Positions 3,101 to 44,046 of a stretch of 64,000 nucleotides of DNA are shown here, in pieces. Source of the DNA: a virus (taxonomy: Duplodnaviria > Heunggongvirae > Uroviricota > Caudoviricetes); IMG/VR virus record IMGVR_UViG_2576861193_000004, positions 32,001 through 96,000 of that record, one strand, 5' to 3'. Numbering within the stretch: position 1 is the first letter of the stretch; each line of letters begins with the position of its first letter. The position numbers and the translations under genes are program-made. Below the pieces are notes generated by a model. It was given only the letters and a program-made list of their open reading frames with translations. It was not told where the DNA came from and searched no databases.

Positions 3101-4348
3101 TGTCGCCTTCGTGGATGCCGTCGTGGCGCTGCTCTTCGCTGCTGACGCCTGTCTGGTCGCCTCATCTTTTGAAGCAGACGCCGATGATGCCGATGACGCC
3201 GCCGAACTGGCGGACGATGCGGCTGCCGTTTTTGAGGATTCTGCACGGGTTTCCGACGCTTTCGCGTTCGTTTCGGATGTCTTCGCTGCGGAAGCAGACC
3301 TCGCTGCTGCGCTGGCCTGTTCAGTGGCTTGGCCAGCCTTCGTTGTGGCAGTTGAAGCAGACGATGCGGCACTTTCTGCCGATTTTCCGGCGGCGGTGGC
3401 ACTGGCTGAGGCCTGCCCGGCACTTGTTGACGCGGCACTGGCAGACGACGCAGCCGCTGTTTTTGAGCCTGCCGCAGCCGAGGCGCTCTGTCCCGCTGCC
3501 GTTTCAGAAGACCTGGCGTTCGTCTCGGACGTTTTTGCCGCCTTCGCGGAATTTCCTGCCGCCGTTGCCGAGGAAGCGGCATTACTGGCGCTCGAGGCTG
3601 CGCTCGTTTCTGATGATTTCGCTGCCTCTTTTGAGGCCGCCGCATCCCGGGCTGAGGTGGCAGCTTCTGACGCCTTCGTGGTCGCGGTGGATGCAGAAGT
3701 GGCTGCAGATTTTTGTGACGCTGCAGCATTCGTTTCAGATTTTTTCGCATCAGTTGCACTCGCACTTGCGGCACTTTGTGAGGATGCCGCAGCGGATGCA
3801 CTTTGAGACGCTTGAGAGGCTTTTTCTCCAGCGGCATTGGCGCTTTTTGCTGCTGCGGCAGCACTGGCCGCCGCCTCACGAGCTTTGTCGCCAGCAGCAT
3901 CAATCGCGTCAGTGTTATTTTTATACCACTCAACGTTTTCGTTGTGCTCGTTGACGATCTGCATTAGCGGCTTAACGGTCACTTCTGTACCGTCTTCACG
4001 CTCGATTGTCACCTCATCCAGCGCAGTCAACCAACTGCGTATGGACTTGGAATCAGCCGACATACGCGACATTAGCGCAGTAAAGCGCGCGCTAAACTGT
4101 GTTAAGTCGCCTTCATAGGTCGTAATGATTCGGCACGGAACTTCAGACTGAGTTTCGCCGGTATAAGGTTCTGAGAGAACAATGTTCGTATCACTGGTTA
4201 CGCGCTTGATCTCATACAGCTTATTGTCGGGGCCAATGACGATCATCCCCGGCAACACACCATTAGCTGTTACGTTCCAGGCTGTCCCTGCCCCAACCAG
4301 AGTATTGCTGCCCTGTGTAAATGTGATAGTACCTTCCCTGTACCACAT
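176..4348 (-). CDS. stf: side tail fibre protein (Stf-like), 1390 aa
   Basis: Position between J-like gene and tfa. Long Ala/Ser/Thr-rich shaft, three tandem ~36-aa fibre repeats ([13 protein letters not shown]...[19 protein letters not shown]), His-rich C-terminus (GAHTHS repeats) as in lambda Stf / T4 gp37-type fibres. Confidence 0.8.
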
Positions 4349-31725: not shown

Positions 31726-32004
31726 ATGAGCGAAAAGAAAACAACTTATTGCCAAGTGGCATTGTCTGATAAGGCCAATGAAAAACTTGGAAAATTTCAA
31801 ATAAAACTCAAAGAGAAAAAAATCAAGATGTCTAAGGCTGAAGTTATCAATGCCATTCTGGAGACGATGACTATGGCTGAATTTGACAAAGTCACATCTG
31901 CCGTTGGGGTTTCCGCTAAGACGCGTGAGAAAATCATGCGCATCTATGAGAACTCCAATATGACAAAAAAAGATCTAGAGGAAATACTGAGCAGGTTGCC
32001 GTAA
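31726..32004 (+). CDS. hypothetical protein
   Basis: 92-aa ORF starting 3 nt after the helicase stop. Confidence 0.45.
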   Translation: MSEKKTTYCQVALSDKANEKLGKFQIKLKEKKIKMSKAEVINAILETMTMAEFDKVTSAVGVSAKTREKIMRIYENSNMTKKDLEEILSRLP

Positions 32005-32036: not shown

Positions 32037-32636
32037 ATGATGTGCTCACTTGTTAGAAAGGAGCACATCATGAGTTGGTTAAAAGAATTATCATTTGTTG
32101 ACACCACTGGCGCTAAGAAAAATCATTCTTTCTGGAAAGTCAGCGATCCTTCTGATTTTCTTGTTGGTGCTAATGCTGCTTTTGAATTGCTTAACTTTTA
32201 TCAACGTTATCCTGAAATGAAACACAGTCCACTCCTGTACAGAATAACAAACGATATGAATAGGTCTGGTTTATTATCAAGTGAGTCAGCGAAAGGCTTT
32301 TTTAGCAAAATTACGCCACACATATCATTCGATTCAGCAAACGAAATTGATTATCTACCCACGAAACCTCAAGAACAATTATCTGTACCACCTGAGAAAA
32401 AAGAAAGACGAATTTCCAGCATTGAAAATATATCGAAAGAGCTTCGCACAACAACGTTGAGGCTGCTGAACTTTCTTACGCTACTTAATTGGATAGATGA
32501 TCAAACATTGATTCCATCAACCGATGCGTTGGATAACAGAGTCCTTAGGCTGAACAAAAAATCGCAATTTGGTTTTGTGTTCACCAAAAAAGGTGAAGAT
32601 TTAATCAAAAGAAAATATAGATTATTGAATGATTAA
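32037..32636 (+). CDS. hypothetical protein (probable start at ATG 32070)
   Basis: AT-rich ORF. SD AGGAG before ATG 32070. Start region lies inside an 11-bp-stem hairpin. Confidence 0.45.
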   Translation: MMCSLVRKEHIMSWLKELSFVDTTGAKKNHSFWKVSDPSDFLVGANAAFELLNFYQRYPEMKHSPLLYRITNDMNRSGLLSSESAKGFFSKITPHISFDSANEIDYLPTKPQEQLSVPPEKKERRISSIENISKELRTTTLRLLNFLTLLNWIDDQTLIPSTDALDNRVLRLNKKSQFGFVFTKKGEDLIKRKYRLLND

Positions 32637-32781
32637 TAGTCTACATGCAGGTGTATGAGAGCACCTGCATGTGACACTCATCACATTTTTTGAAGCACAC
32701 ACCTCCGGCTGAAAAAATTTCTTGATTGGCTGAACGATATTTGTAGGCTTTTCAATTGATAACTAAGGTCGGATACTGTAG

Positions 32782-33270: not shown

Positions 33271-33885
33271 TTGGATTATCATGATATGAAAATGAAACTT
33301 TCGTTACTCCTTGCTTGTATATACCTCCCGGCGTTTCCCGCCAACGCATTATCAGATTTCGTCTCTGACATGCAAAAAACGTACAGCATGTTTACCTCCG
33401 AAGACGTAGTAGAATACAAATCACGAGGTCTGAATCAGCCAGTTTGGTTCAGATTCTCAGACAACGCAGAAGAAACAATACTTAATGGAGGAAAAGAAAG
33501 ATTACGGTTGCAAATTAACGGGACCGCTGTACCAGAAAACGTTAATGTAAGCTCTGACGAAGCCATGAAGCCATCTGGAATTGTTTTAGAAGTTCAAGAC
33601 GGCACACTTTACTGTGATGAAATGGCTACAACAGGTTGCCAAGTAAACATTAGGGTTGGCAATGAAGAGCCTATCGTTACTTACGCCAAGGCTGAAGGGA
33701 ATACAAGTGGAAAGGTATTGTTTATCGATGAAAATATCTCAAAACGTATCGTTCGTGACATACAGAAAACAGCTAACTCTAAATCCGTCGATAAAAAAAT
33801 CTATGTTGAGGTTCCCTTCTTTGTCGTTGGTAACAAAGAATTTAAATTTGGGTTGCTGAAAACACCTCTAAGAGTATCAGAATGA
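33271..33885 (+). CDS. hypothetical exported protein
   Basis: N-terminal signal-peptide-like segment MKMKLSLLLACIYLPAFPANA (AxA site or lipobox-like LLAC). Confidence 0.5.
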   Translation: MDYHDMKMKLSLLLACIYLPAFPANALSDFVSDMQKTYSMFTSEDVVEYKSRGLNQPVWFRFSDNAEETILNGGKERLRLQINGTAVPENVNVSSDEAMKPSGIVLEVQDGTLYCDEMATTGCQVNIRVGNEEPIVTYAKAEGNTSGKVLFIDENISKRIVRDIQKTANSKSVDKKIYVEVPFFVVGNKEFKFGLLKTPLRVSE

Positions 33886-34406
33886 GAACATTGGACATCA
33901 CCTACGGCATACCGGCTGAAGTCTGGCCGCGAGACTACGAACATGCTGAGAACATACTTATGTTCTGGCGGAAGAACAACATTCCTGTAAGAGTCACGCT
34001 TGAAGACGGTCAGGTGTTTTGCATGTACGTTCAGGGGACAATGCCTTCACGCAATAAGCTAGATTTATGCCCGATTCCATATGATAAAGAAAATCGTATA
34101 AGACTCCCACTTGAGCGCATTAGCACAATTGAATCAGGTGTAATCGATGGCATTGCTCGCGAGTTCAAAGGTAGGCTAACAATACATCCAGACTATGTTG
34201 ACAATCAGCCATCACGCCGTGACTTTTTTGCGATATGTCGCAAGGCTTATCAAAACGACCAATCTATAAGGGTCTACATGACAGACGGTCGTGAAATAGA
34301 AGGGGTGTCAAGAGGCGTTGATGCTTGCCAGGTCACTCTTAAGTTAGAAGACGGCAGAAAAATACTTGTTTTCTTCGATTGGGTTGAACGAATCCTTCCA
34401 TTTTAA
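33882..34406 (+). CDS. tandem Rof (YaeO)-like domain protein, candidate Rho antagonist
   Basis: Two repeats resembling the E. coli Rof pattern as recalled (VRVTLEDGQ...RIRLPLERISTIE and VTLKLEDGRKILVFFDWVERI). Overlaps previous gene by ATGA. Confidence 0.4.
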   Translation: MRTLDITYGIPAEVWPRDYEHAENILMFWRKNNIPVRVTLEDGQVFCMYVQGTMPSRNKLDLCPIPYDKENRIRLPLERISTIESGVIDGIAREFKGRLTIHPDYVDNQPSRRDFFAICRKAYQNDQSIRVYMTDGREIEGVSRGVDACQVTLKLEDGRKILVFFDWVERILPF

Positions 34407-34692: not shown

Positions 34693-35352
34693 ATGTCCAT
34701 CATGGCTAACATTATCATTTCTAAAAAGTCCATCATTGAAGCTGCTGCCATTGTATCCGACGAGCTGCGCGAAAAAGCAGATCTGGCAACTCAAACATAT
34801 AACGAACATTATAAAAATGGTACGCACACAAAAGCAGACAAAGCAAACATGCAAGCTGCGACCACTAAACTTGCTTACTTCATCAACAACGTTGTGAACG
34901 CAGTAGAAGACGAAAAATTATGCTCTGTTTTCTACTATGCGATTAAAGCAAGCAAACAAGCGCCAGAAGTATTTTTCCGTGATGCAATGACTAATAGTTA
35001 TTCTCTGGAAAAACTGGTTTATCTGGTTAAATCAATTAAATCTGGTAAATGCGTTTACTCCATCGCTGATATGTCTGGATCTCGTGTATTCGCTTTAATC
35101 GATATGATTAACGACGAGATCGACACGTTCACCAATGGCGCTGTTTTCGATTTAATGAATGAAGCTAAAAAAGCGTGCGAAATTAAATTGGACGCTGGCT
35201 ATACTCAAGCCAACCAGTTGATCAATCTTTGCGAACGTCTTGGACTTGTTGAGAAAGTCAAAGGAATGGGAAGCGCAAAAGCTGGTACGCAGCAATATCG
35301 CTTTATTAAAAATGATTTCTATAACTATCTGGCTGATGCTTTCAAAGCGTAA
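34693..35352 (+). CDS. hypothetical protein
   Basis: ORF preceded by a sigma70-like promoter (TTGCAA-17-ATAATT at 34600-34628) and SD AAGGA. Alternative start ATG 34702. Confidence 0.5.
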   Translation: MSIMANIIISKKSIIEAAAIVSDELREKADLATQTYNEHYKNGTHTKADKANMQAATTKLAYFINNVVNAVEDEKLCSVFYYAIKASKQAPEVFFRDAMTNSYSLEKLVYLVKSIKSGKCVYSIADMSGSRVFALIDMINDEIDTFTNGAVFDLMNEAKKACEIKLDAGYTQANQLINLCERLGLVEKVKGMGSAKAGTQQYRFIKNDFYNYLADAFKA

Positions 35353-35630: not shown

Positions 35631-35635
35631 AATCG

Positions 35636-35660
35636 AGCGCCCACTATGGGCGCTTTTTTC
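35636..35660 (+). terminator. rho-independent terminator (copy 2)
   Basis: GCGCCCACTATGGGCGC followed by T6, followed at 35683-35706 by a second hairpin GCGCCATCATTGGCGC plus T6. Confidence 0.65.
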
Positions 35661-36114
35661 GTTTCCAATACTCCCACCATAACGCGCCATCATTGGCGCG
35701 TTTTTTATTGTCTTTAACTCGCTCCAACAACATAAAAATAAGCACCAAAATAACGCCATAGACGCGCTTTTATATCCTTGTCAGTACATACCCATTACTT
35801 AACACATTAACGCGCTTAAAACGCGTTATATTGCGCTATAGAGTATGGTTAATCATTGGCTTTTAGTCTTGCTATGTGATCCGCGTTTATTTGTCGGCGC
35901 GGATCGGCTCTTTGTGTTGTTTTGTATCCGCTCGCGTATTATGTGCGCGTGATTTTTCACATAATCACACCACTTAATCACATATGTGATTACGCTACGA
36001 AAGAAATCTGGATGTCTCAGGCGACGAAAGTCATCATAATTTTCCCCGCTCACCTGTCCGACAACCGCTGGTTGGATTCCACCAGCTTCCCGATGTTTTT
36101 TCTACATAAAGGCG

Positions 36115-36240
36115 AATGCAGCCGTTTCCCGAAAAAATCCTGGCCGTTTCCCGTCGGCTCATGAATGCGTTCCTCGCCGTTTCTGAAAATTTCCCTGCGG
36201 CAGCTGGTGGCTATAGAGAAAGGGCCGTTTCTGGCCCTCT
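36115..36240. repeat. iteron cluster 1 (four GCCGTTTCC-type direct repeats)
   Basis: Copies at about 36121, 36143, 36176, 36224 (spacings 22, 33, 48 bp). Contains GCTGGTGG (Chi sequence) at 36203-36210. Confidence 0.7.
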
Positions 36241-36246
36241 TCTCAG

Positions 36247-36729
36247 TTACACGCCATCAAGGATGTGGATGCGGTTGCTTGCGTATACATTCAGCATAAA
36301 GTTAGCGCAAAACAGTTTCCATGTATCAACGCCAGCGGTATACGTAATGTTTTTGCATTTAATTGCATTGTTGGCGATCCGCATCCCCTGCGATACTGCT
36401 TCATCGTCGGAAAATTTGAACGACGATTGAGTTTTAATCCAGACAGAAATCTGCGTAGCGAACTCAATCAGCTTGGACTGGCAGAATCGCCCGGAGCGCA
36501 CCGGAAAGACGAACGTTCCGAATCCAGAATTTACCACATACGCTTTCTCAAATACCCGCGAGTAACGACGATTGCCAATGATGTCGCGTGCAATAATGCA
36601 TTTTTCTTGTGCTGACAGTTCTACCGTCTCATTGTCGCGCCATGCACCAAGTACTCGTTTTTCAATGTCAGAGAACGTTACAGCGATATTGCCATGTGCG
36701 GGTGCGTTTACAGTAGCGATAAAATTCAT
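36247..36729 (-). CDS. hypothetical protein (early-type cassette gene)
   Basis: ORF with the conserved promoter-palindrome cassette upstream. 3' end abuts iteron cluster 1. Confidence 0.5.
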   Translation of the reverse strand: MNFIATVNAPAHGNIAVTFSDIEKRVLGAWRDNETVELSAQEKCIIARDIIGNRRYSRVFEKAYVVNSGFGTFVFPVRSGRFCQSKLIEFATQISVWIKTQSSFKFSDDEAVSQGMRIANNAIKCKNITYTAGVDTWKLFCANFMLNVYASNRIHILDGV

Positions 36730-37079
36730 GATTAATTCCTTATCGTAAATAACAAATTGTTTTCTTGTTGGTGTTAATTATCGTTGTACGAATAAGGCGT
36801 CAAAGTGGAAAGTTGCGGTAGCCGGACGGGAACAGGTGGGTTTGTCGGTTGCCTGGAGGTAAGAGGTTGGTGTTTTTAGCCTGCGGGAAACAGGATGGTC
36901 ATTTAAGGCCACCAATGCTGATGGCCTTAATAATTATCGCCCTATTACGCTAAGGATCTTTTCCTCAACTGATTTGTTGTTGCGACTAAACTGCCTTGCG
37001 TATCTGATGACAGAAGAGGCGTTTTGCTTTCTGACCAATTCGACTCTTTCCTTCAGGGTTTTCTTGAAATCGCCCATAT

Positions 37080-37454
37080 TTACCACCAGGCGCAGAAGGT
37101 CAGTCTGTTATTGTGAAAGTCGTGGTTCCTGATCAGGTCTTCCACAAGTTTTTTCAGCTTATCCACGTCATGCCAGTAACCTTCGTCGTACTCCTGACTG
37201 CCGAAGAAAAAACCTTCCCGAGTAGGCAAGTACTCTTCGCAATTGCTTTCGTTTATGTGCATCAAATGAGCTTTCAGAAGACAAATGTCATTCATCGTTA
37301 ATTCTAAAAGCTCACAATTTTCGACTTCACCTACGTTGCGCTCCATCCACCCAACGAGCGCATTGAACTTACGGAAGTAAGCAACCTGCTTTCTGGATGC
37401 CTCGTTATTCAGATCGTTTTTAGGCTGTGTCTCGATATAGATATCAAGTCCCAT
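37080..37454 (-). CDS. hypothetical acidic protein
   Basis: ATG 37454 with SD AAGGAAA, conserved palindrome cassette upstream at about 37512-37528. Confidence 0.5.
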   Translation of the reverse strand: MGLDIYIETQPKNDLNNEASRKQVAYFRKFNALVGWMERNVGEVENCELLELTMNDICLLKAHLMHINESNCEEYLPTREGFFFGSQEYDEGYWHDVDKLKKLVEDLIRNHDFHNNRLTFCAWW

Positions 37455-37531
37455 GATGGTTTCCTTATTAAGTTGCTTCAGTGAAATCATTTTCACAAAT
37501 CAGATAAGGCAGAAAACAAATTGTTATCGGG

Positions 37532-37560
37532 CATAATAAAATGGCGCGGTTTACGCGCCA
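37532..37560 (-). terminator. rho-independent terminator
   Basis: Hairpin TGGCGCG-GTT-TACGCGCCA with T-run on minus strand, directly after the stop at 37572. Confidence 0.55.
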
Positions 37561-37571
37561 TTTAAAGAGGA

Positions 37572-37968
37572 TTAAGCGAATACGCTTTCAGGGATTAAGG
37601 TGTCGGCAGGAATGCCAGAGGTAATGCGCAGACCGTACTGGCCAATCCAGGTGGTGCTGGTGTTCAGGCTGGAGGCGAATACGGTGTTAACCATATTCAT
37701 CATGGTTTCAAACACCTCTTCATCAACCTGGCGGAAGTAGTTCTCGATTTTCAGCAGCAGCGGGTCAGTTGCATCGAGAATGGACTGGTATTGAGTCGCG
37801 TACTCGCCGCCGGAGGCATCACCTTTACGCACGATCGTACTGGCCTGGACTTCGGCACCAGTTTCGGTGTTGTACGTAACAACGGTAATTTTTGCCACAT
37901 TCTTACCTTCGGCGGTTTCAGAGGCATAGTAAACATCAACTGTCAGTTTTTCGCGTTTAACGGTCATT
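37572..37968 (-). CDS. hypothetical protein
   Basis: ATG about 37968 (MTVKREKL) with SD GGAGAG. Promoter-like TTGTAA-17-TAGAAT containing the GTAAGTATGTACTTAC palindrome upstream. Confidence 0.5.
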
Positions 37969-38030
37969 TCACTCTCCGTAGTGTCTTGGTTATTTTTATA
38001 TTCTATGATCGTAAGTATGTACTTACAATA

Positions 38031-38059
38031 CAAAAAAGCCCCGTAAGGATGGCGGGGCT
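38031..38059 (-). terminator. rho-independent terminator
   Basis: Minus strand AGCCCCGCCATCCTTACGGGGCTTTTTT, about 35 bp after the stop at 38094. Confidence 0.65.
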
Positions 38060-38093
38060 GTCGTACGGTCGACTAATTACCACTTGCACATTA

Positions 38094-38405
38094 TCAGGCT
38101 ATTGCCATCACTGATGCTCTCTGAATCTCTTGCTGGGCCACGCGGTTAACTTCCATCAAAGCCAGTTCGAGCTGATGTTCCGGCCACATTCTTTGAAATG
38201 CCACCCAGCCTTTTCCACGCTGGCGACGAACATTCATTACATAACGAGTAAAGGTGTTTTTATCGAAAGACACCGCTGTTTCACGGAACAGACGAATAGA
38301 GGTTCCATTGGCAACGATGTCCAGCAAAGTTAATTGAGCAACCAGCGCAGGCTTCTCTTTTCTCTTCTGGTCTTTGTCCAGACCAAGAACCAATGATTTT
38401 TTCAT
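38094..38405 (-). CDS. hypothetical basic protein (possible DNA-binding regulator)
   Basis: ATG 38405 (MKKSLVLG) with SD GGAG, conserved palindrome cassette immediately upstream, terminator downstream. Confidence 0.5.
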   Translation of the reverse strand: MKKSLVLGLDKDQKRKEKPALVAQLTLLDIVANGTSIRLFRETAVSFDKNTFTRYVMNVRRQRGKGWVAFQRMWPEHQLELALMEVNRVAQQEIQRASVMAIA

Positions 38406-38558
38406 CACAACTCCGTAAACAACTTGTTTTCTCAATGGCGTAAATAATACCAGTAAGAAAACGGCTACAAAGCATATTGATCAGGTGCATGAGCGATATG
38501 CAGGTTCTTCCCTGCGGCTATAGAGAAATTAAGCCAGCAATGCTGGCTTTGGTTGGGG

Positions 38559-38888
38559 TTACTCGAATACTTCAAGAAACTCCTGAACGTCCCAATGCTG
38601 GACGAGGTGAAGATAGACCTTAGAAATCACGTCATTTTCGCTATCGCATGTGAAGTAGTACTTCTGGCTGCGGTTGTATGTGTCCACACAAAATTCGCTC
38701 ATATCCATAAAGTCAGCATCTTCACCCATGTCGCAAATCATCAAAGCAGGTGCGTCATCACGAGTCATCAGCTCCAGCACCCATCTTGAATTAATCAGAG
38801 TGGAAGACCAACCTTCCAGCTCATAGAACTGGTCAAACTCTTTTTGAGTCAATTTCTTGATTTGGTTGATGTCGATATTTGCAAACAT
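38559..38888 (-). CDS. hypothetical highly acidic protein (candidate DNA mimic / anti-restriction)
   Basis: 109 aa with about 25 Asp/Glu against 8 Lys/Arg. ATG 38888 with SD AAGGA, conserved palindrome cassette upstream. Confidence 0.5.
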   Translation of the reverse strand: MFANIDINQIKKLTQKEFDQFYELEGWSSTLINSRWVLELMTRDDAPALMICDMGEDADFMDMSEFCVDTYNRSQKYYFTCDSENDVISKVYLHLVQHWDVQEFLEVFE

Positions 38889-39244
38889 AAAGCAATCCTT
38901 AAACAACATGTTTTCTTGATGGTGTTATTATCGCAATAACGCACAGGCGAAAAAGGATTTTATTCCGGTGAATGTGGTTTTGGCAGTGAGTTTTCAGGTT
39001 CAGTACCGAGTACACTTTTTACATTATTCTGATTTAGTGGCCGAAGGTGGCTGGTGGGCAGAATAATCATCTCCCCGAAAACCTACTGAAATCGATTGTG
39101 ACCCGCTGACTGTCTGGCACAATTACGCTGTAGTTGGGCATTCAGAGGGAATCCAGCGGTAAGTAAGTTCGCCTGCACGTGAGCGCCTCTCTTCTTCCCG
39201 CACATTACAGGTGGGTAGCCGCAACTCTCCCTATCGCTATACCG

Positions 39245-39385
39245 GTACGCCGCCGTTCCTGAACCGGCATCGAGCCTTTTCCCGAAATCCACACAGGCAA
39301 CTCGACCGTTTCCCTGAAAACCTCCAGCCGTTCCCCGAAGGCAACCCAGCCGTTTCTGTAGCGGGATGCAGCCTTTTCCCTGTAT
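39245..39385. repeat. iteron cluster 2 (six (A)GCCGTTTCCC-type direct repeats, 22-bp periodicity)
   Basis: Copies at about 39252, 39274, 39305, 39327, 39349, 39371; the last four form an uninterrupted 22-bp tandem array. Confidence 0.75.
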
Positions 39386-39419: not shown

Positions 39420-40330
39420 ATAAAATCAGGAGTTGATTAAATACGAAAAAGGAGGCGACACCCCTCCTTCCCTCCCCACTTATACATACCTGTCTTGTTC
39501 GCTATACATGTTGTGTTTTCTTCGTGTTTTATCTGTCTCAACCTCTCTATAGGCGTTAATGCTCACTCCTTCCAGAATGTTCTATACGGCGACTATTTCT
39601 GTTGGTGAATTGGGTGTGTTGTTTTCTCTGTCGGTGTATGTGGTTTCGTTCGTTTTGCGGTGGTTCTTCTATGGGGTGTTCTCGTCGTTTTGGTGATTGT
39701 TCTTCTCCGTGTATGGAGTAATGGCAGGTGGGCGATTCCTTTCGTTATTGTGTTTGAGTTGTTTGTCTGGAGTGTGAAAGGCTTTTGTAGTTATTCGTGT
39801 ATTGGGTAATGGCGTTTCCCGTGATTGTTATGTTTCGTGTCTTTTGGGATTGAGAGAAACCTTGCGGTTACAGGCTTCGTTGGGGTTTCAGTGATTCTGG
39901 TGTTTCTTCGCTGTTTGGGTAATGGCGTGTCGTGGGTATCGCGCGTATGAATGTTTTCGGATTGCCTGTGAAAGTTAGGTTGGTTGTCCGGTAGCCTGGG
40001 GAGAAGAGGTGGGTCTTTTCGGTAGCCTGCCATAAAGAGGTTGGTTGTTTTGGGGAATGGCATGTGTGTTATTTAGTTGTTTTGTTATGCCTGAAAATAA
40101 GTTGTTTATATGGTTGTGTAACGCAACGGGAACGATTTTGAGCGTGTGTTTTTGTTGGTGGTGTGTTGGGTCGTCTGTGGTGAAAATTGGACGCTGTGGC
40201 GCTGTCTGCTGCGTAGAATTACGGGTATAAGAAGTGATGTGTGAATACGTCAATTTTTTAGACCAAATCGGGTGAAAGCGTTGACGTTTCGTTGATCTGT
40301 TATTCAGTTGTTTTCTTATTGGTATAAACA
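39420..40330. other. ORF-poor, strongly G+T-skewed segment with periodic GGGTAATGGCG-like motifs
   Basis: Plus strand is almost only G and T over about 0.9 kb. Repeated motif at about 39712, 39800, 39918, 40052 and tandem CGGTAGCCTG / GGTTGGTTGT pairs. Track ORFs here have implausible composition. Confidence 0.6.
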
Positions 40331-40450
40331 ACGTTAACCTATTGATATTTAAAGGTGTGATTGCAGGTATGGAAGGAGAGTAGTGGCGATCAACAGATTC
40401 TTATAGAAAAGAATCAAATTGTGACCGCCATTATCAATAAGTTGCAACCG

Positions 40451-41855: not shown

Positions 41856-43889
41856 TTACTTAACCTGGTGGCCTGGTTTAGCACCAGCATCCGGGCTTAA
41901 CAGGAAGATATCTTTCCCGCCGGGGCCAGCAGCCATCACCATGCCTTCGGAGATACCGAAGCGCATTTTACGCGGAGCCAGGTTAGCCACCATAATGGTG
42001 TGACGACCAATCAGTGCCTGTGGGTCTGGATAAGCAGAACGGATGCCTGAGAAGACATTACGCTTTTCACCACCGAGATCCAGTGTCAGACGCAGCAGTT
42101 TGTCAGAACCTTCGACAAACTCCGCGTTTTCAATCAGCGCCACACGCAGGTCAACTTTGGCGAAGTCGTCAAAGGTGATGGTTTCCTGAATCGGGTCGTC
42201 AGCCAGTGGGCCAGTTACCGGTGCAGCTGTGGCTTTCACTTCTTCTTTGGATGCTTCCACCAGTGCTTCCACCTGTTTCATATCGATACGGTTATACAGT
42301 GCCTTGAACGGATTCACTTTATGGCCCAGCAGCGGTTGCTGGATACCATCCCAGGTCAGTTCTGTATTCAGGAATGCTTCTGCACGTTCAGTCAGTTTCG
42401 GCAGTACCGGTTTCAGGTACGTCATCAGCACGCGGAACAGGTTAATGCCCATAGAGCAAATCGCCTGCAGGTCGGCATCGCGGCCTTCCTGCTTCGCCAC
42501 CACCCACGGAGCCTGTTCATCAACATAGCGGTTAGCCAGGTCAGCCAGTGACATGATTTCACGGATAGCTTTGCCAAATTCGCGGCTTTCCCACGCTTCA
42601 CCAATCACTTCAGCGGCATCAGTGAAGGTTTTGTACAGTTGCGGGTCAGCCAGTTCGCTTGCCAGCACGCCGTCAAAACGTTTGTTGATAAAACCTGCAT
42701 TACGGGAGGCCAGGTTAACCACTTTGTTCACGATATCGGCATTCACGCGCTGAACAAAATCTTCCAGGTTGAGATCGATATCATCAATGCGCGAAGAGAG
42801 TTTCGCAGTGTAGTAGTAACGCAGGCTGTCGGCGTCAAAATGATTCAGCCAGGTGCTGGCTTTAATAAAGGTGCCGCGAGACTTGGACATCTTCGCGCCG
42901 TTCACCGTCACATAGCCGTGAACAAACAGGTTGGTCGGCTTGCGGAAGTTGCTGCCTTCCAGCATGGCAGGCCAGAACAGGCTGTGGAAGTAAACGATAT
43001 CTTTACCGATGAAGTGGTACAGCTCGGCGGTGGAGTCTTTCTTCCAGTATTCGTCGAAGCTGGTAGTGTCGCCGCGTTTGTCGCACAGATTCTTGAAGGA
43101 ACCCATGTAGCCAATCGGCGCGTCCAGCCAGACGTAGAAATATTTGCCCGGTGCGTTCGGAATTTCAAAACCGAAGTACGGCGCATCGCGGGAGATATCC
43201 CACTGTTGCAGGCCAGATTCAAACCACTCCTGCATTTTGTTTGCCACCTGCTCCTGCAACGCACCGCTGCGGGTCCATGCCTGCAACATTTCGCTGAAAG
43301 AGGGCAGATCAAAGAAGAAGTGTTCAGAATCACGCATTACCGGCGTAGCGCCAGAAACCACCGATTTCGGCTCGATCAATTCAGTCGGGCTATATGTTGC
43401 GCCGCAGACTTCACAGTTATCGCCGTATTGATCTGGCGCTTTACATTTAGGACAGGTGCCTTTTACAAAACGGTCCGGCAGGAACATGCCTTTTTCCGGG
43501 TCGTACAACTGAGAGATAGTGCGGTTTTTAATAAAACCGTTCTCTTTCAGGCGAGTATAGATAAGCTCAGACAACTGACGGTTCTCTTCGCTGTGCGTCG
43601 AGTGATAGTTGTCATAGCTGATGTTAAAGCCTGCGAAATCAGTCTGGTGTTCCTGACTCATTTCGCCAATCATCTGCTCCGGTGTGATACCAAGCTGCTG
43701 TGCTTTCAGCATGATCGGCGTACCGTGGGCATCGTCGGCACAGATGAAATTAACCTCGTGGCCGCGCATTCGCTGGTAACGAACCCAGACATCAGCCTGG
43801 ATGTGCTCCAGCATATGGCCGAGGTGGATTGAGCCGTTAGCGTACGGCAGCGCGCACGTCACCAGAATTTTCTTCGCGACTTGGGTCAT
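41856..43889 (-). CDS. metG: methionine--tRNA ligase
   Basis: 677-aa product essentially identical by eye to E. coli MetG ([29 protein letters not shown]...KMSKS...). Track ORF begins at an upstream in-frame start; true ATG at 43889. Confidence 0.95.
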
Positions 43890-44046
43890 AGTAGGCATTA
43901 CTTCTTTGTAGTGAAAAGGGGCTTGATAGTAACAAAATGGCCTTATGTCTGCCATGTGATAACAGCATTTCTCATAAATGATTAAATGTCGTAGCTGGAG
44001 TACACTACAAGGCGACAATTGCGCAAATTAAAATAAAGGAGACGGG

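Follow-up and report, generated by a model that had tools for sequence, protein, structure and literature searches.

What are the two clusters of short direct repeats that bracket a block of small genes in IMG/VR record IMGVR_UViG_2576861193_000004, and which protein reads them? The window analysed here is a 64,000-nt stretch of that record (positions 32,001 to 96,000) and, judged by its sequence, comes from an E. coli phage-plasmid of the SSU5/pHCM2-like type. Our analysis supports the view that the clusters are genuine, helically phased, iteron-like direct repeats of this phage-plasmid.

The region from 35.6 to 40.4 kb shares 94–97% identity with Escherichia phages Cyrano (pLF82), CMS-2020a and PhiR41_1, and has weaker matches in Klebsiella phage-plasmids and in Salmonella phage SSU5. 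A match over at least 80% of the 17-kb stretch from 27 to 44 kb is present in 177 complete E. coli genomes; those inspected carry it on plasmids of ~110 kb. As a map of the element we used NZ_JCANNN010000002.1, a near-identical plasmid with PGAP annotation, in which window position 1 corresponds approximately to position 36996. Relatives were gathered with g160, the gene adjoining the left cluster, as anchor, which gave 76 IMG/VR loci with g160 protein identities from 100% down to 67%. Expression values are those of the Cyrano orthologues in the LF82 transcriptome (PMC9928086, S1 table), where the background is 9.8.

Two repeat arrays outside the transcription units

The repeat core, (A/G)CC(G/T)TT(T/C)CC, is 9–10 bp long and occurs in ten copies, all on the plus strand. 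An earlier sequence-only reading of this DNA had placed four copies at 36.12–36.23 kb and six at 39.25–39.38 kb, and all ten were located there. The strict 22-bp phasing that it ascribed to the right cluster does not hold, as one interval measures 31 bp. The arrays and their adjoining terminators lie at:

Array A, 36121–36185, plus strand: copies of GCCGTTTC(C/T)(C/G) at 36121, 36143 and 36176, spaced by 22 and 33 bp
Array B, 39252–39380, plus strand: copies at 39252, 39274, 39305, 39327, 39349 and 39371, spaced by 22/31/22/22/22 bp
Two intrinsic terminators, 35635–35702, plus strand: close the upstream operon, left of array A
g160 terminator hairpin, 36221–36238, minus strand: read from the sequence, with GCTATAGAG at 36210–36218 as its U-tail
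Terminator-like hairpin, 39446–39472, minus strand: immediately right of array B

With a fourth copy at 36224 included, the left cluster spans 36121–36233 and has spacings of 22/33/48 bp. This copy (36224–36233) lies inside the minus-strand g160 terminator hairpin, within its loop and its 3' arm, and may therefore be incidental and no true member of the array. The hairpin itself appears in both the minimum-free-energy and the centroid folds and is kept in relatives.

The repeats are real, and their clustering and spacing are far above chance. The best 130-bp stretch holds six same-strand matches, compared with at most two in 300 dinucleotide shuffles, and five neighbour spacings are 21–23 bp, a range that none of the shuffles produced. 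Spacers between the 9–10 nt cores are 12–13 nt, and most copies are set apart by whole helical turns. The motif is degenerate, position 4 being G or T and position 7 being T or C, and one copy begins with A. A logo of 189 distinct units from the 76 related loci approximates ACCCA-GCCGTTTCC-cGAA, with weak flanks and about 9–10 strong positions, of which the search pattern itself fixed several. The core is asymmetric, with weak and partial dyads. Elsewhere in the plasmid, beyond both arrays, the motif occurs at chance level, and a scan of contigs with a 17-base gapped repeat pattern returned mostly chance matches in unrelated bacteria.

Each array is situated just past an intrinsic terminator and outside the transcription units. 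The noncoding DNA of array A is enclosed by the plus-strand terminators on its left and the g160 terminator on its right. The bracketed block has its first promoter-like box ~300 bp downstream of array B.

The layout is widely conserved. Array A directly follows g160 in every untruncated locus among the 76, and nearly all of these loci have a second array of 3–6 copies in the same orientation, 0.9–3.6 kb away. SSU5 and a Klebsiella phage show the same two-array layout at syntenic places. The sequence-only reading had named absence of the repeats from related elements as what would refute it; they are kept in SSU5, in Klebsiella and in the IMG/VR loci. Across 11 divergent loci, 76% of the bases of array A are conserved, compared with 71% of the g160 coding sequence and 14% of the noncoding DNA just to the left. 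Next to array B, the flanking segment 39386–39480 is 74% conserved in divergent relatives.

The motif does not vary among Escherichia, Salmonella, Klebsiella and Yersinia, and it is the same in CP056499.1, a Klebsiella oxytoca plasmid that is only very distantly related. There, both arrays have the same core, whereas two proteins encoded between them, g160 and g131, are 31% and 30% identical to ours, and a g103-like protein is recognisable only by a short motif. The array spacings in this plasmid are 24/12/37 and 26/10/25 bp. The core is therefore steadier than the proteins encoded around it, and phasing at exactly 22 bp is a trait of some lineages rather than universal. As the motif stays unchanged while its orphan neighbours drift to ~30%, the DNA-contacting residues of whatever protein reads it should be strongly conserved.

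Two rearranged plasmids show which parts of the locus can be lost. In Y. pestis pMT1 (NZ_CP045146.1, 5500–8000), what remains is the left noncoding region with array A, plus an intact g160. Downstream of an insertion of IS1541 (IS200/IS605 family), other sequence has taken the place of array B, the skewed noncoding region to its right and the remainder of the block, g103 included. In p3RM15115, a 62-kb defective derivative, all virion genes, the operon for the ParB-like proteins and the adjacent helicase are gone. Still present in this plasmid are repA, the par operon, the gene block and the long noncoding region; both arrays are retained at their original spacing, and a RelE/ParE toxin-antitoxin pair has been inserted between them.

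An RNA-level reading of the arrays was rejected. Folding of both strands of both arrays was not above shuffled controls (z from −1.3 to +0.7), and Rfam searches gave no family at the gathering threshold and nothing meaningful at E<=1; the repeats were therefore treated as DNA sites. We predict with fair confidence that the arrays are protein-binding sites acting at the DNA level, and infer that each is coated by a conserved DNA-binding protein encoded by the element.

Two other kinds of DNA site were ruled out. The sites of the Tn7 and Mu transposases are 22 bp long, but transposon ends of this type would be inverted at two ends, and all ten copies lie on the same strand. For a packaging site, the arrays are 10–13 kb from terS/terL and are kept in p3RM15115, which lacks the terminase.

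The sequence-only reading had also listed several sites of a short motif, GCTATAGAG. Three exact copies stand, at 35835, 36210 and 38517 and at no other place (0.32 expected); the site given as 35780 was off by 55 bp, and those near ~39545 and ~40555 are 8/9 matches on the opposite strand. With one mismatch allowed the motif is not enriched (13 observed, 8.4 expected). The copies at 36210 and 38517 are the U-tails of minus-strand terminators, and at 36210, the sole copy compared with relatives, these have other sequence. A functional role for the motif was ruled out on these grounds.

The RepA replicon and the ParB-like genes

Could the arrays be the plasmid origin? The sequence-only reading took them for an origin or incA-like locus, or else for the centromere of the ParB-like proteins encoded at 28.7–30.1 kb, and we now consider either assignment hardly tenable. 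The resemblance behind the first is genuine: like P1 oriR/incC-repA-incA, this phage-plasmid has two clusters of phased direct repeats of ~20 bp that flank genes, and repeats of ~17–22 bp in one orientation are what iteron replicons carry. However, the P1-type layout is present elsewhere in the element. A RepB-family repA spans the record origin of NZ_JCANNN010000002.1, ~37 kb from the arrays, with DnaA boxes, a GATC-rich segment and three iterons upstream and 12 iterons downstream. These 15 iterons are of the type TATGCTGTCAGCGG, mostly spaced at multiples of ~10 bp, and are unrelated to GCCGTTTCC. The oriR region at repA also contains a TTATTCACA box and, read from the sequence, a near-consensus TATCCACA. 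In related IncpKPHS1 plasmids, iterons likewise adjoin repA (PMC6735626).

The arrays themselves lack these companions, including a GATC cluster. Within 600 bp of either array, no DnaA box, integration host factor (IHF) site or AT-rich unwinding element is conserved among 15 relatives (AT fraction 0.36–0.66). Pfam and PHROG searches of the proteins encoded between the arrays found no Rep-like gene, and structural models of g160 and g103 had no match to a Rep or winged-helix fold, in agreement with the sequence-only reading, which had seen no initiator there. We are very confident that the arrays are not RepA iterons.

As to the second assignment, the proteins at 28.7–30.1 kb do have ParB N-terminal domains, as had been proposed. 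In the 232-aa (amino acid) ParB-like protein, strong similarity to Spo0J is confined to the N-terminal domain, and no helix-turn-helix (HTH) is evident in the rest of the Spo0J alignment. The orthologues CYRAN_119 and CYRAN_120 read 5.0, the detection floor, and 9.5 in lysogeny, so neither rises above background. Their operon is deleted in p3RM15115, which keeps both arrays, and the repeat is asymmetric, in contrast to the palindromic parS of HTH-type ParB.

Candidate proteins for the arrays

We tentatively favour, as possible rather than probable, a reading in which the arrays would be dispersed centromere-like sites of a type Ib pair, ParA and a 117-aa protein, and possibly also silencers of the bracketed block. 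We infer it from conservation, co-occurrence and expression, and from the fact that no other candidate centromere was found. ParA (222 aa in NZ_JCANNN010000002.1; Pfam MipZ/CbiA; PHROG 'ParA-like partition protein') is encoded ~2.5 kb beyond the window. The 117-aa protein is encoded after parA and fits a type Ib partner in position, size and sequence pattern. Its basic, proline/arginine-rich N-terminus is followed by KSRTMSLEDEYFELLEMMKF...TRSDVIRAAIFHL in a beta-alpha-alpha pattern, which we read as a putative disordered basic tail and ribbon-helix-helix (RHH) domain. RHH is the usual fold of type Ib centromere-binding proteins (PMC5016525).

In most of 797 plasmids, across genera, the 117-aa protein is at least 90% identical. 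The version in CP056499.1, at 35% identity overall, keeps the presumed DNA-reading strand SRT(M/I)SLE. Plasmid-state expression is 50 for ParA and 89 for the 117-aa protein, well over background. No repeat array was found beside the par operon, and its centromere is therefore unaccounted for. The 117-aa protein has no match in Yersinia plasmids, pMT1 included, and pMT1 is also without array B. We further count in favour of this reading the survival of both arrays, together with repA and the par operon, in p3RM15115, which is devoid of virion genes.

Under the centromere-like reading, dimers of the 117-aa protein would bind the repeats cooperatively and build a segrosome on each array, and ParA would position the plasmid copies ahead of cell division. 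The segrosome complexes may also damp transcription of the bracketed block, as omega does in pSM19035. There is precedent for repeat-array centromeres of RHH proteins and for sites scattered over a replicon, in pSM19035 and N15 (PMC5016525).

The closest parallels are TP228 (parH/ParG) and pSM19035 (parS1-3/omega), where the sites are also short repeat arrays and may be all direct. A small protein whose N-tail is basic and flexible binds these repeats, and the arrays of pSM19035 stand at several loci and act as operators too (PMC5016525). Unlike these systems, the arrays here are 39–42 kb from the par operon, the partner is an RHH protein by prediction, and contiguous boxes of 4–8 bp are replaced by a 22-bp unit with one 9–10 bp core. 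In the phage-plasmid N15, sopC-like centromere sites are scattered away from the partition operon, according to Ravin and Lane (1999) as summarized in PMC5016525; those sites are single palindromes for an HTH-type SopB (type Ia), whereas ours form asymmetric direct-repeat arrays. R1 parC (ten 11-bp repeats divided between two blocks) and pSK41 parC (20-bp tandem repeats) resemble the arrays as helically phased direct repeats in blocks. They lie at the par promoter and are coated cooperatively by the RHH protein ParR, which works with actin-like ParM. In contrast, the arrays here are separated by 3 kb, have unrelated genes beside them and would pair with a ParA-type ATPase.

Several points weigh against a centromere role. 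Type Ib centromeres are direct or inverted repeat arrays, which ours resemble in form only, and they are normally adjacent to the par operon rather than remote from it. Known RHH arrays are usually contiguous, with units of 7–11 or 20 bp, and one 9–10 bp core per 22 bp is more typical of Rep iterons. The 117-aa protein has no Pfam match even at E=10 and no match among PDB sequences, its RHH assignment being our own reading of the sequence, and what ties it to the arrays is only co-occurrence and conservation. The correlation in pMT1 does not discriminate, because g103 shows the same pattern of presence and absence as the 117-aa protein. Within 6 kb, one lineage (L080) lacks array B. Finally, the centromere model leaves the tight link between array A and g160 unexplained.

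That link directs attention to the genes around the arrays:

219-aa orphan gene, 34693–35352, plus strand: phrog_1513; its operon ends just left of array A
g160, 36247–36729, minus strand: 160-aa basic orphan, phrog_1641, isoelectric point (pI) 9.2, adjoins array A, present in 804 PLSDB plasmids
g47, 36934–37077, minus strand: variable cargo between the arrays
g124, 37080–37454, minus strand: variable cargo between the arrays
g131, 37572–37967, minus strand: variable cargo between the arrays
g103, 38094–38405, minus strand: 103-aa basic orphan, phrog_5125, pI 10.5
g109, 38559–38888, minus strand: variable cargo between the arrays

The block thus comprises six minus-strand open reading frames. 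The count of five in the sequence-only reading agrees with the PGAP annotation of the relative and misses one of those counted here. None of the six proteins matches Pfam, and PHROG places five in families of unknown function and has no match for g47.

One of the local proteins (g160, g103 or the 219-aa protein) might instead bind the arrays and control the bracketed early or accessory block, by pairing or looping or as a roadblock or insulator. We regard this as a somewhat doubtful possibility, though it is the chief alternative to the centromere-like reading. Its attraction lies in the gene order: beyond the constant place of g160 beside array A, cargo between the arrays comes and goes among 79 loci, g103 is there in 73 of them, and the minimal block (L077, L081) consists of g103 and g160. 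Both proteins are basic, and the block genes are mostly near background in lysogeny. The g103 model has a disordered basic N-tail, a four-stranded sheet and a C-terminal helix, and is weakly similar to folds of the AP2 and integrase arm-binding kinds, both of which recognise asymmetric sites. Among the neighbours the 219-aa protein is the best conserved, with 82–87% identity across genera, 53% in CP056499.1 and an almost invariant C-terminus.

Control by a local protein fits less well with other observations. g160 and the g103-like protein are ~25–31% identical in CP056499.1, yet the motif there is unchanged. The g160 model (predicted local distance difference test score, pLDDT, 85) has no fold match in PDB or BFVD, and the fold match of g103 is generic. 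A profile search with the g103 family in 1.8 billion representative proteins found only 17 relatives, none informative, and the 219-aa protein has no family or structure match. Neither array overlaps a promoter, and array A lies beyond the terminator of the block. Plasmid-state readings for g103 and the 219-aa gene do not rise above the detection floor, yet p3RM15115, without virion genes, keeps the arrays.

The invariance of the motif across genera would also suit a conserved host regulator, for example a LytTR-type protein such as YpdB or BtsR, that couples the phage-plasmid to host physiology. LytTR sites are 9–11 nt repeats set 11–13 nt apart, and YpdB binds GGCATTTCAT-N11-GGCATTTCAT (PMC4847170). 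The arrays share this repeat length and separation, and six of ten bases match the YpdB motif GGCATTTCAT. No more than those six bases match, however, LytTR sites have no common consensus, and the YpdB motif was checked in that one paper. Known LytTR sites are pairs just upstream of a promoter, whereas the arrays have 3–6 copies, stand past terminators and are at least ~300 bp from the nearest promoter-like box. We consider a host regulator very unlikely.

The promoters of the neighbourhood have a repeat of their own. Many minus-strand genes have a conserved box, AACAANTTGTTTTCTT(N)TGG, 20–55 bp ahead of their start codons and after −35/−10-like hexamers (window positions 36751, 37515, 38418, 38902, 40304, 41715 and 55289; NZ_JCANNN010000002.1 positions 3218 and 34578). 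It also precedes parA in the latter plasmid, and an inverted pair of boxes is found at 40075–40110. The box resembles an operator or 5' leader common to a dispersed family of early promoters. At 33882–34406 on the plus strand, a 174-aa protein matches Pfam Flag1_repress (FljA, the phase-1 flagellin repressor) at E=9e-81 and has a faint Hfq-like match at its C-terminus. FljA acts on the fliC mRNA leader. The phage-plasmid may repress host flagellin, or the 174-aa FljA-like protein may bind the shared leader box.

Lytic replication and the place of the arrays in the family

To the right of array B, ~800 bp of noncoding DNA (39600–40400) have a GC skew of +0.3 to +0.6 and an AT skew down to −0.8, with a G+T-rich plus strand and repeated GGTAATGGC motifs. 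The part from 39600 to 40050 is 66% conserved in divergent relatives, compared with 47% for the g103 coding sequence. Open reading frames annotated by some records in this region are inconsistent across annotations and at or near background in the LF82 transcriptome. At 40225–40300, ten relatives share the invariant blocks GGTATAAGA, then ACGTCAAC-N25-GTTGAC, an inverted repeat, and then TTGATGTGTTAT. The layout resembles a promoter/operator switch region, in which box-bearing promoters face each other ~250 bp apart. RNAalifold gave no covariation support on either strand of 40063–40328 in the ten relatives.

A second repeat family, GGTAGCC(T/G)G-N6-8-A(G/C)AGGT(G/T)GGT with ~30-bp spacing, has three copies upstream of the g160 promoter (36813–36905) and two in the right noncoding region (39986–40046). 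Both sets are kept in SSU5, Klebsiella and L077.

Chi sites (GCTGGTGG) number 14 in the 64 kb, where 1.4 are expected, a density close to that of the E. coli chromosome. Noncoding copies near the arrays lie at 36079 (minus), 36203 (plus) and 39050 (plus), and two of them form a pair:

Inverted Chi pair, 36079–36086 (minus strand) and 36203–36210 (plus strand): brackets copies 1–3 of array A

All four relatives read have the left site of the pair, and most have the right one. Its orientation would stop RecBCD nearing the array.

Such features raise the possibility that the arrays belong to a second, lytic-phase origin or control locus at which a non-canonical initiator assembles the phage replisome. 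A 22-bp period is typical of iterons, and the element has its own DnaE, DnaB-like helicase, primase and UvsW-like helicase and an unmapped lytic origin. The conserved, extremely strand-skewed region beside array B and the inverted Chi sites around array A point the same way. We nevertheless think a lytic origin unlikely. As noted for the plasmid origin, a Rep-like protein is missing, and the 15 relatives have neither DnaA boxes nor IHF sites nor AT-rich unwinding elements next to the arrays. p3RM15115, which is unable to finish the lytic cycle, keeps both of them, and cumulative GC skew indicates repA instead. Chi polarity and GC skew were set aside as origin markers, both being confounded by gene orientation.

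A better-looking palindrome exists elsewhere. Outside the window, at 32405–32688 of NZ_JCANNN010000002.1, an AT-rich 17-nt inverted repeat, CCTGCTTCCGTATATAT / ATATATACAGAAGCAGG, with two CTGGTGG motifs nearby, stands upstream of an operon that encodes a 246-aa orphan protein together with the DnaB-like helicase and the primase. As a candidate lytic origin, it is more conventional than the arrays. In P4 (ori/crr) and SPP1 (oriL/oriR), two separate clusters of sites are bound by the initiators P4 alpha and SPP1 G38P and have adjacent AT-rich DNA. Neither such an initiator nor adjacent AT-rich DNA was found for the arrays.

Further right, a full-length metG (methionine-tRNA ligase; 41856–44018, minus strand) is so host-like that all 5426 E. 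coli genomes in our collection give a match to the query sequence. Many metagenomic contigs end ~5 kb right of g160, and this clustering of contig ends probably reflects assembly breaks at metG, because the copy resembles the host gene.

We found no description of the arrays in the searchable literature on origins, iterons and centromeres of SSU5, pHCM2 and pMT1, and none of partitioning or of the start of lytic replication in SSU5/pHCM2-type elements. The arrays would thus be a newly described variant of phased protein-binding repeat arrays in a clinically widespread phage-plasmid family. It is conceivable, though far from assured, that the arrays and at least one family-restricted orphan protein (g160, g103, the 219-aa or the 117-aa protein) form a maintenance module of SSU5/pHCM2/pMT1-type phage-plasmids that has escaped description. 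This would be either a type Ib system with its centromere split into two remote arrays in the phage early region, or a non-Rep iteron system for lytic replication, with a binder that reads an asymmetric 9–10 bp site fixed across Enterobacterales.

Phage-plasmids of the SSU5/pHCM2 type are common in clinical Enterobacterales, include S. Typhi pHCM2 and the Y. pestis pMT1 lineage, and may carry resistance genes. The arrays are the most conspicuous conserved cis-elements of these phage-plasmids beyond the RepA replicon. Once identified, the protein that binds them would offer a testable handle on the stability and incompatibility of the family, and would explain the hotspot of gene cargo that the arrays bracket.

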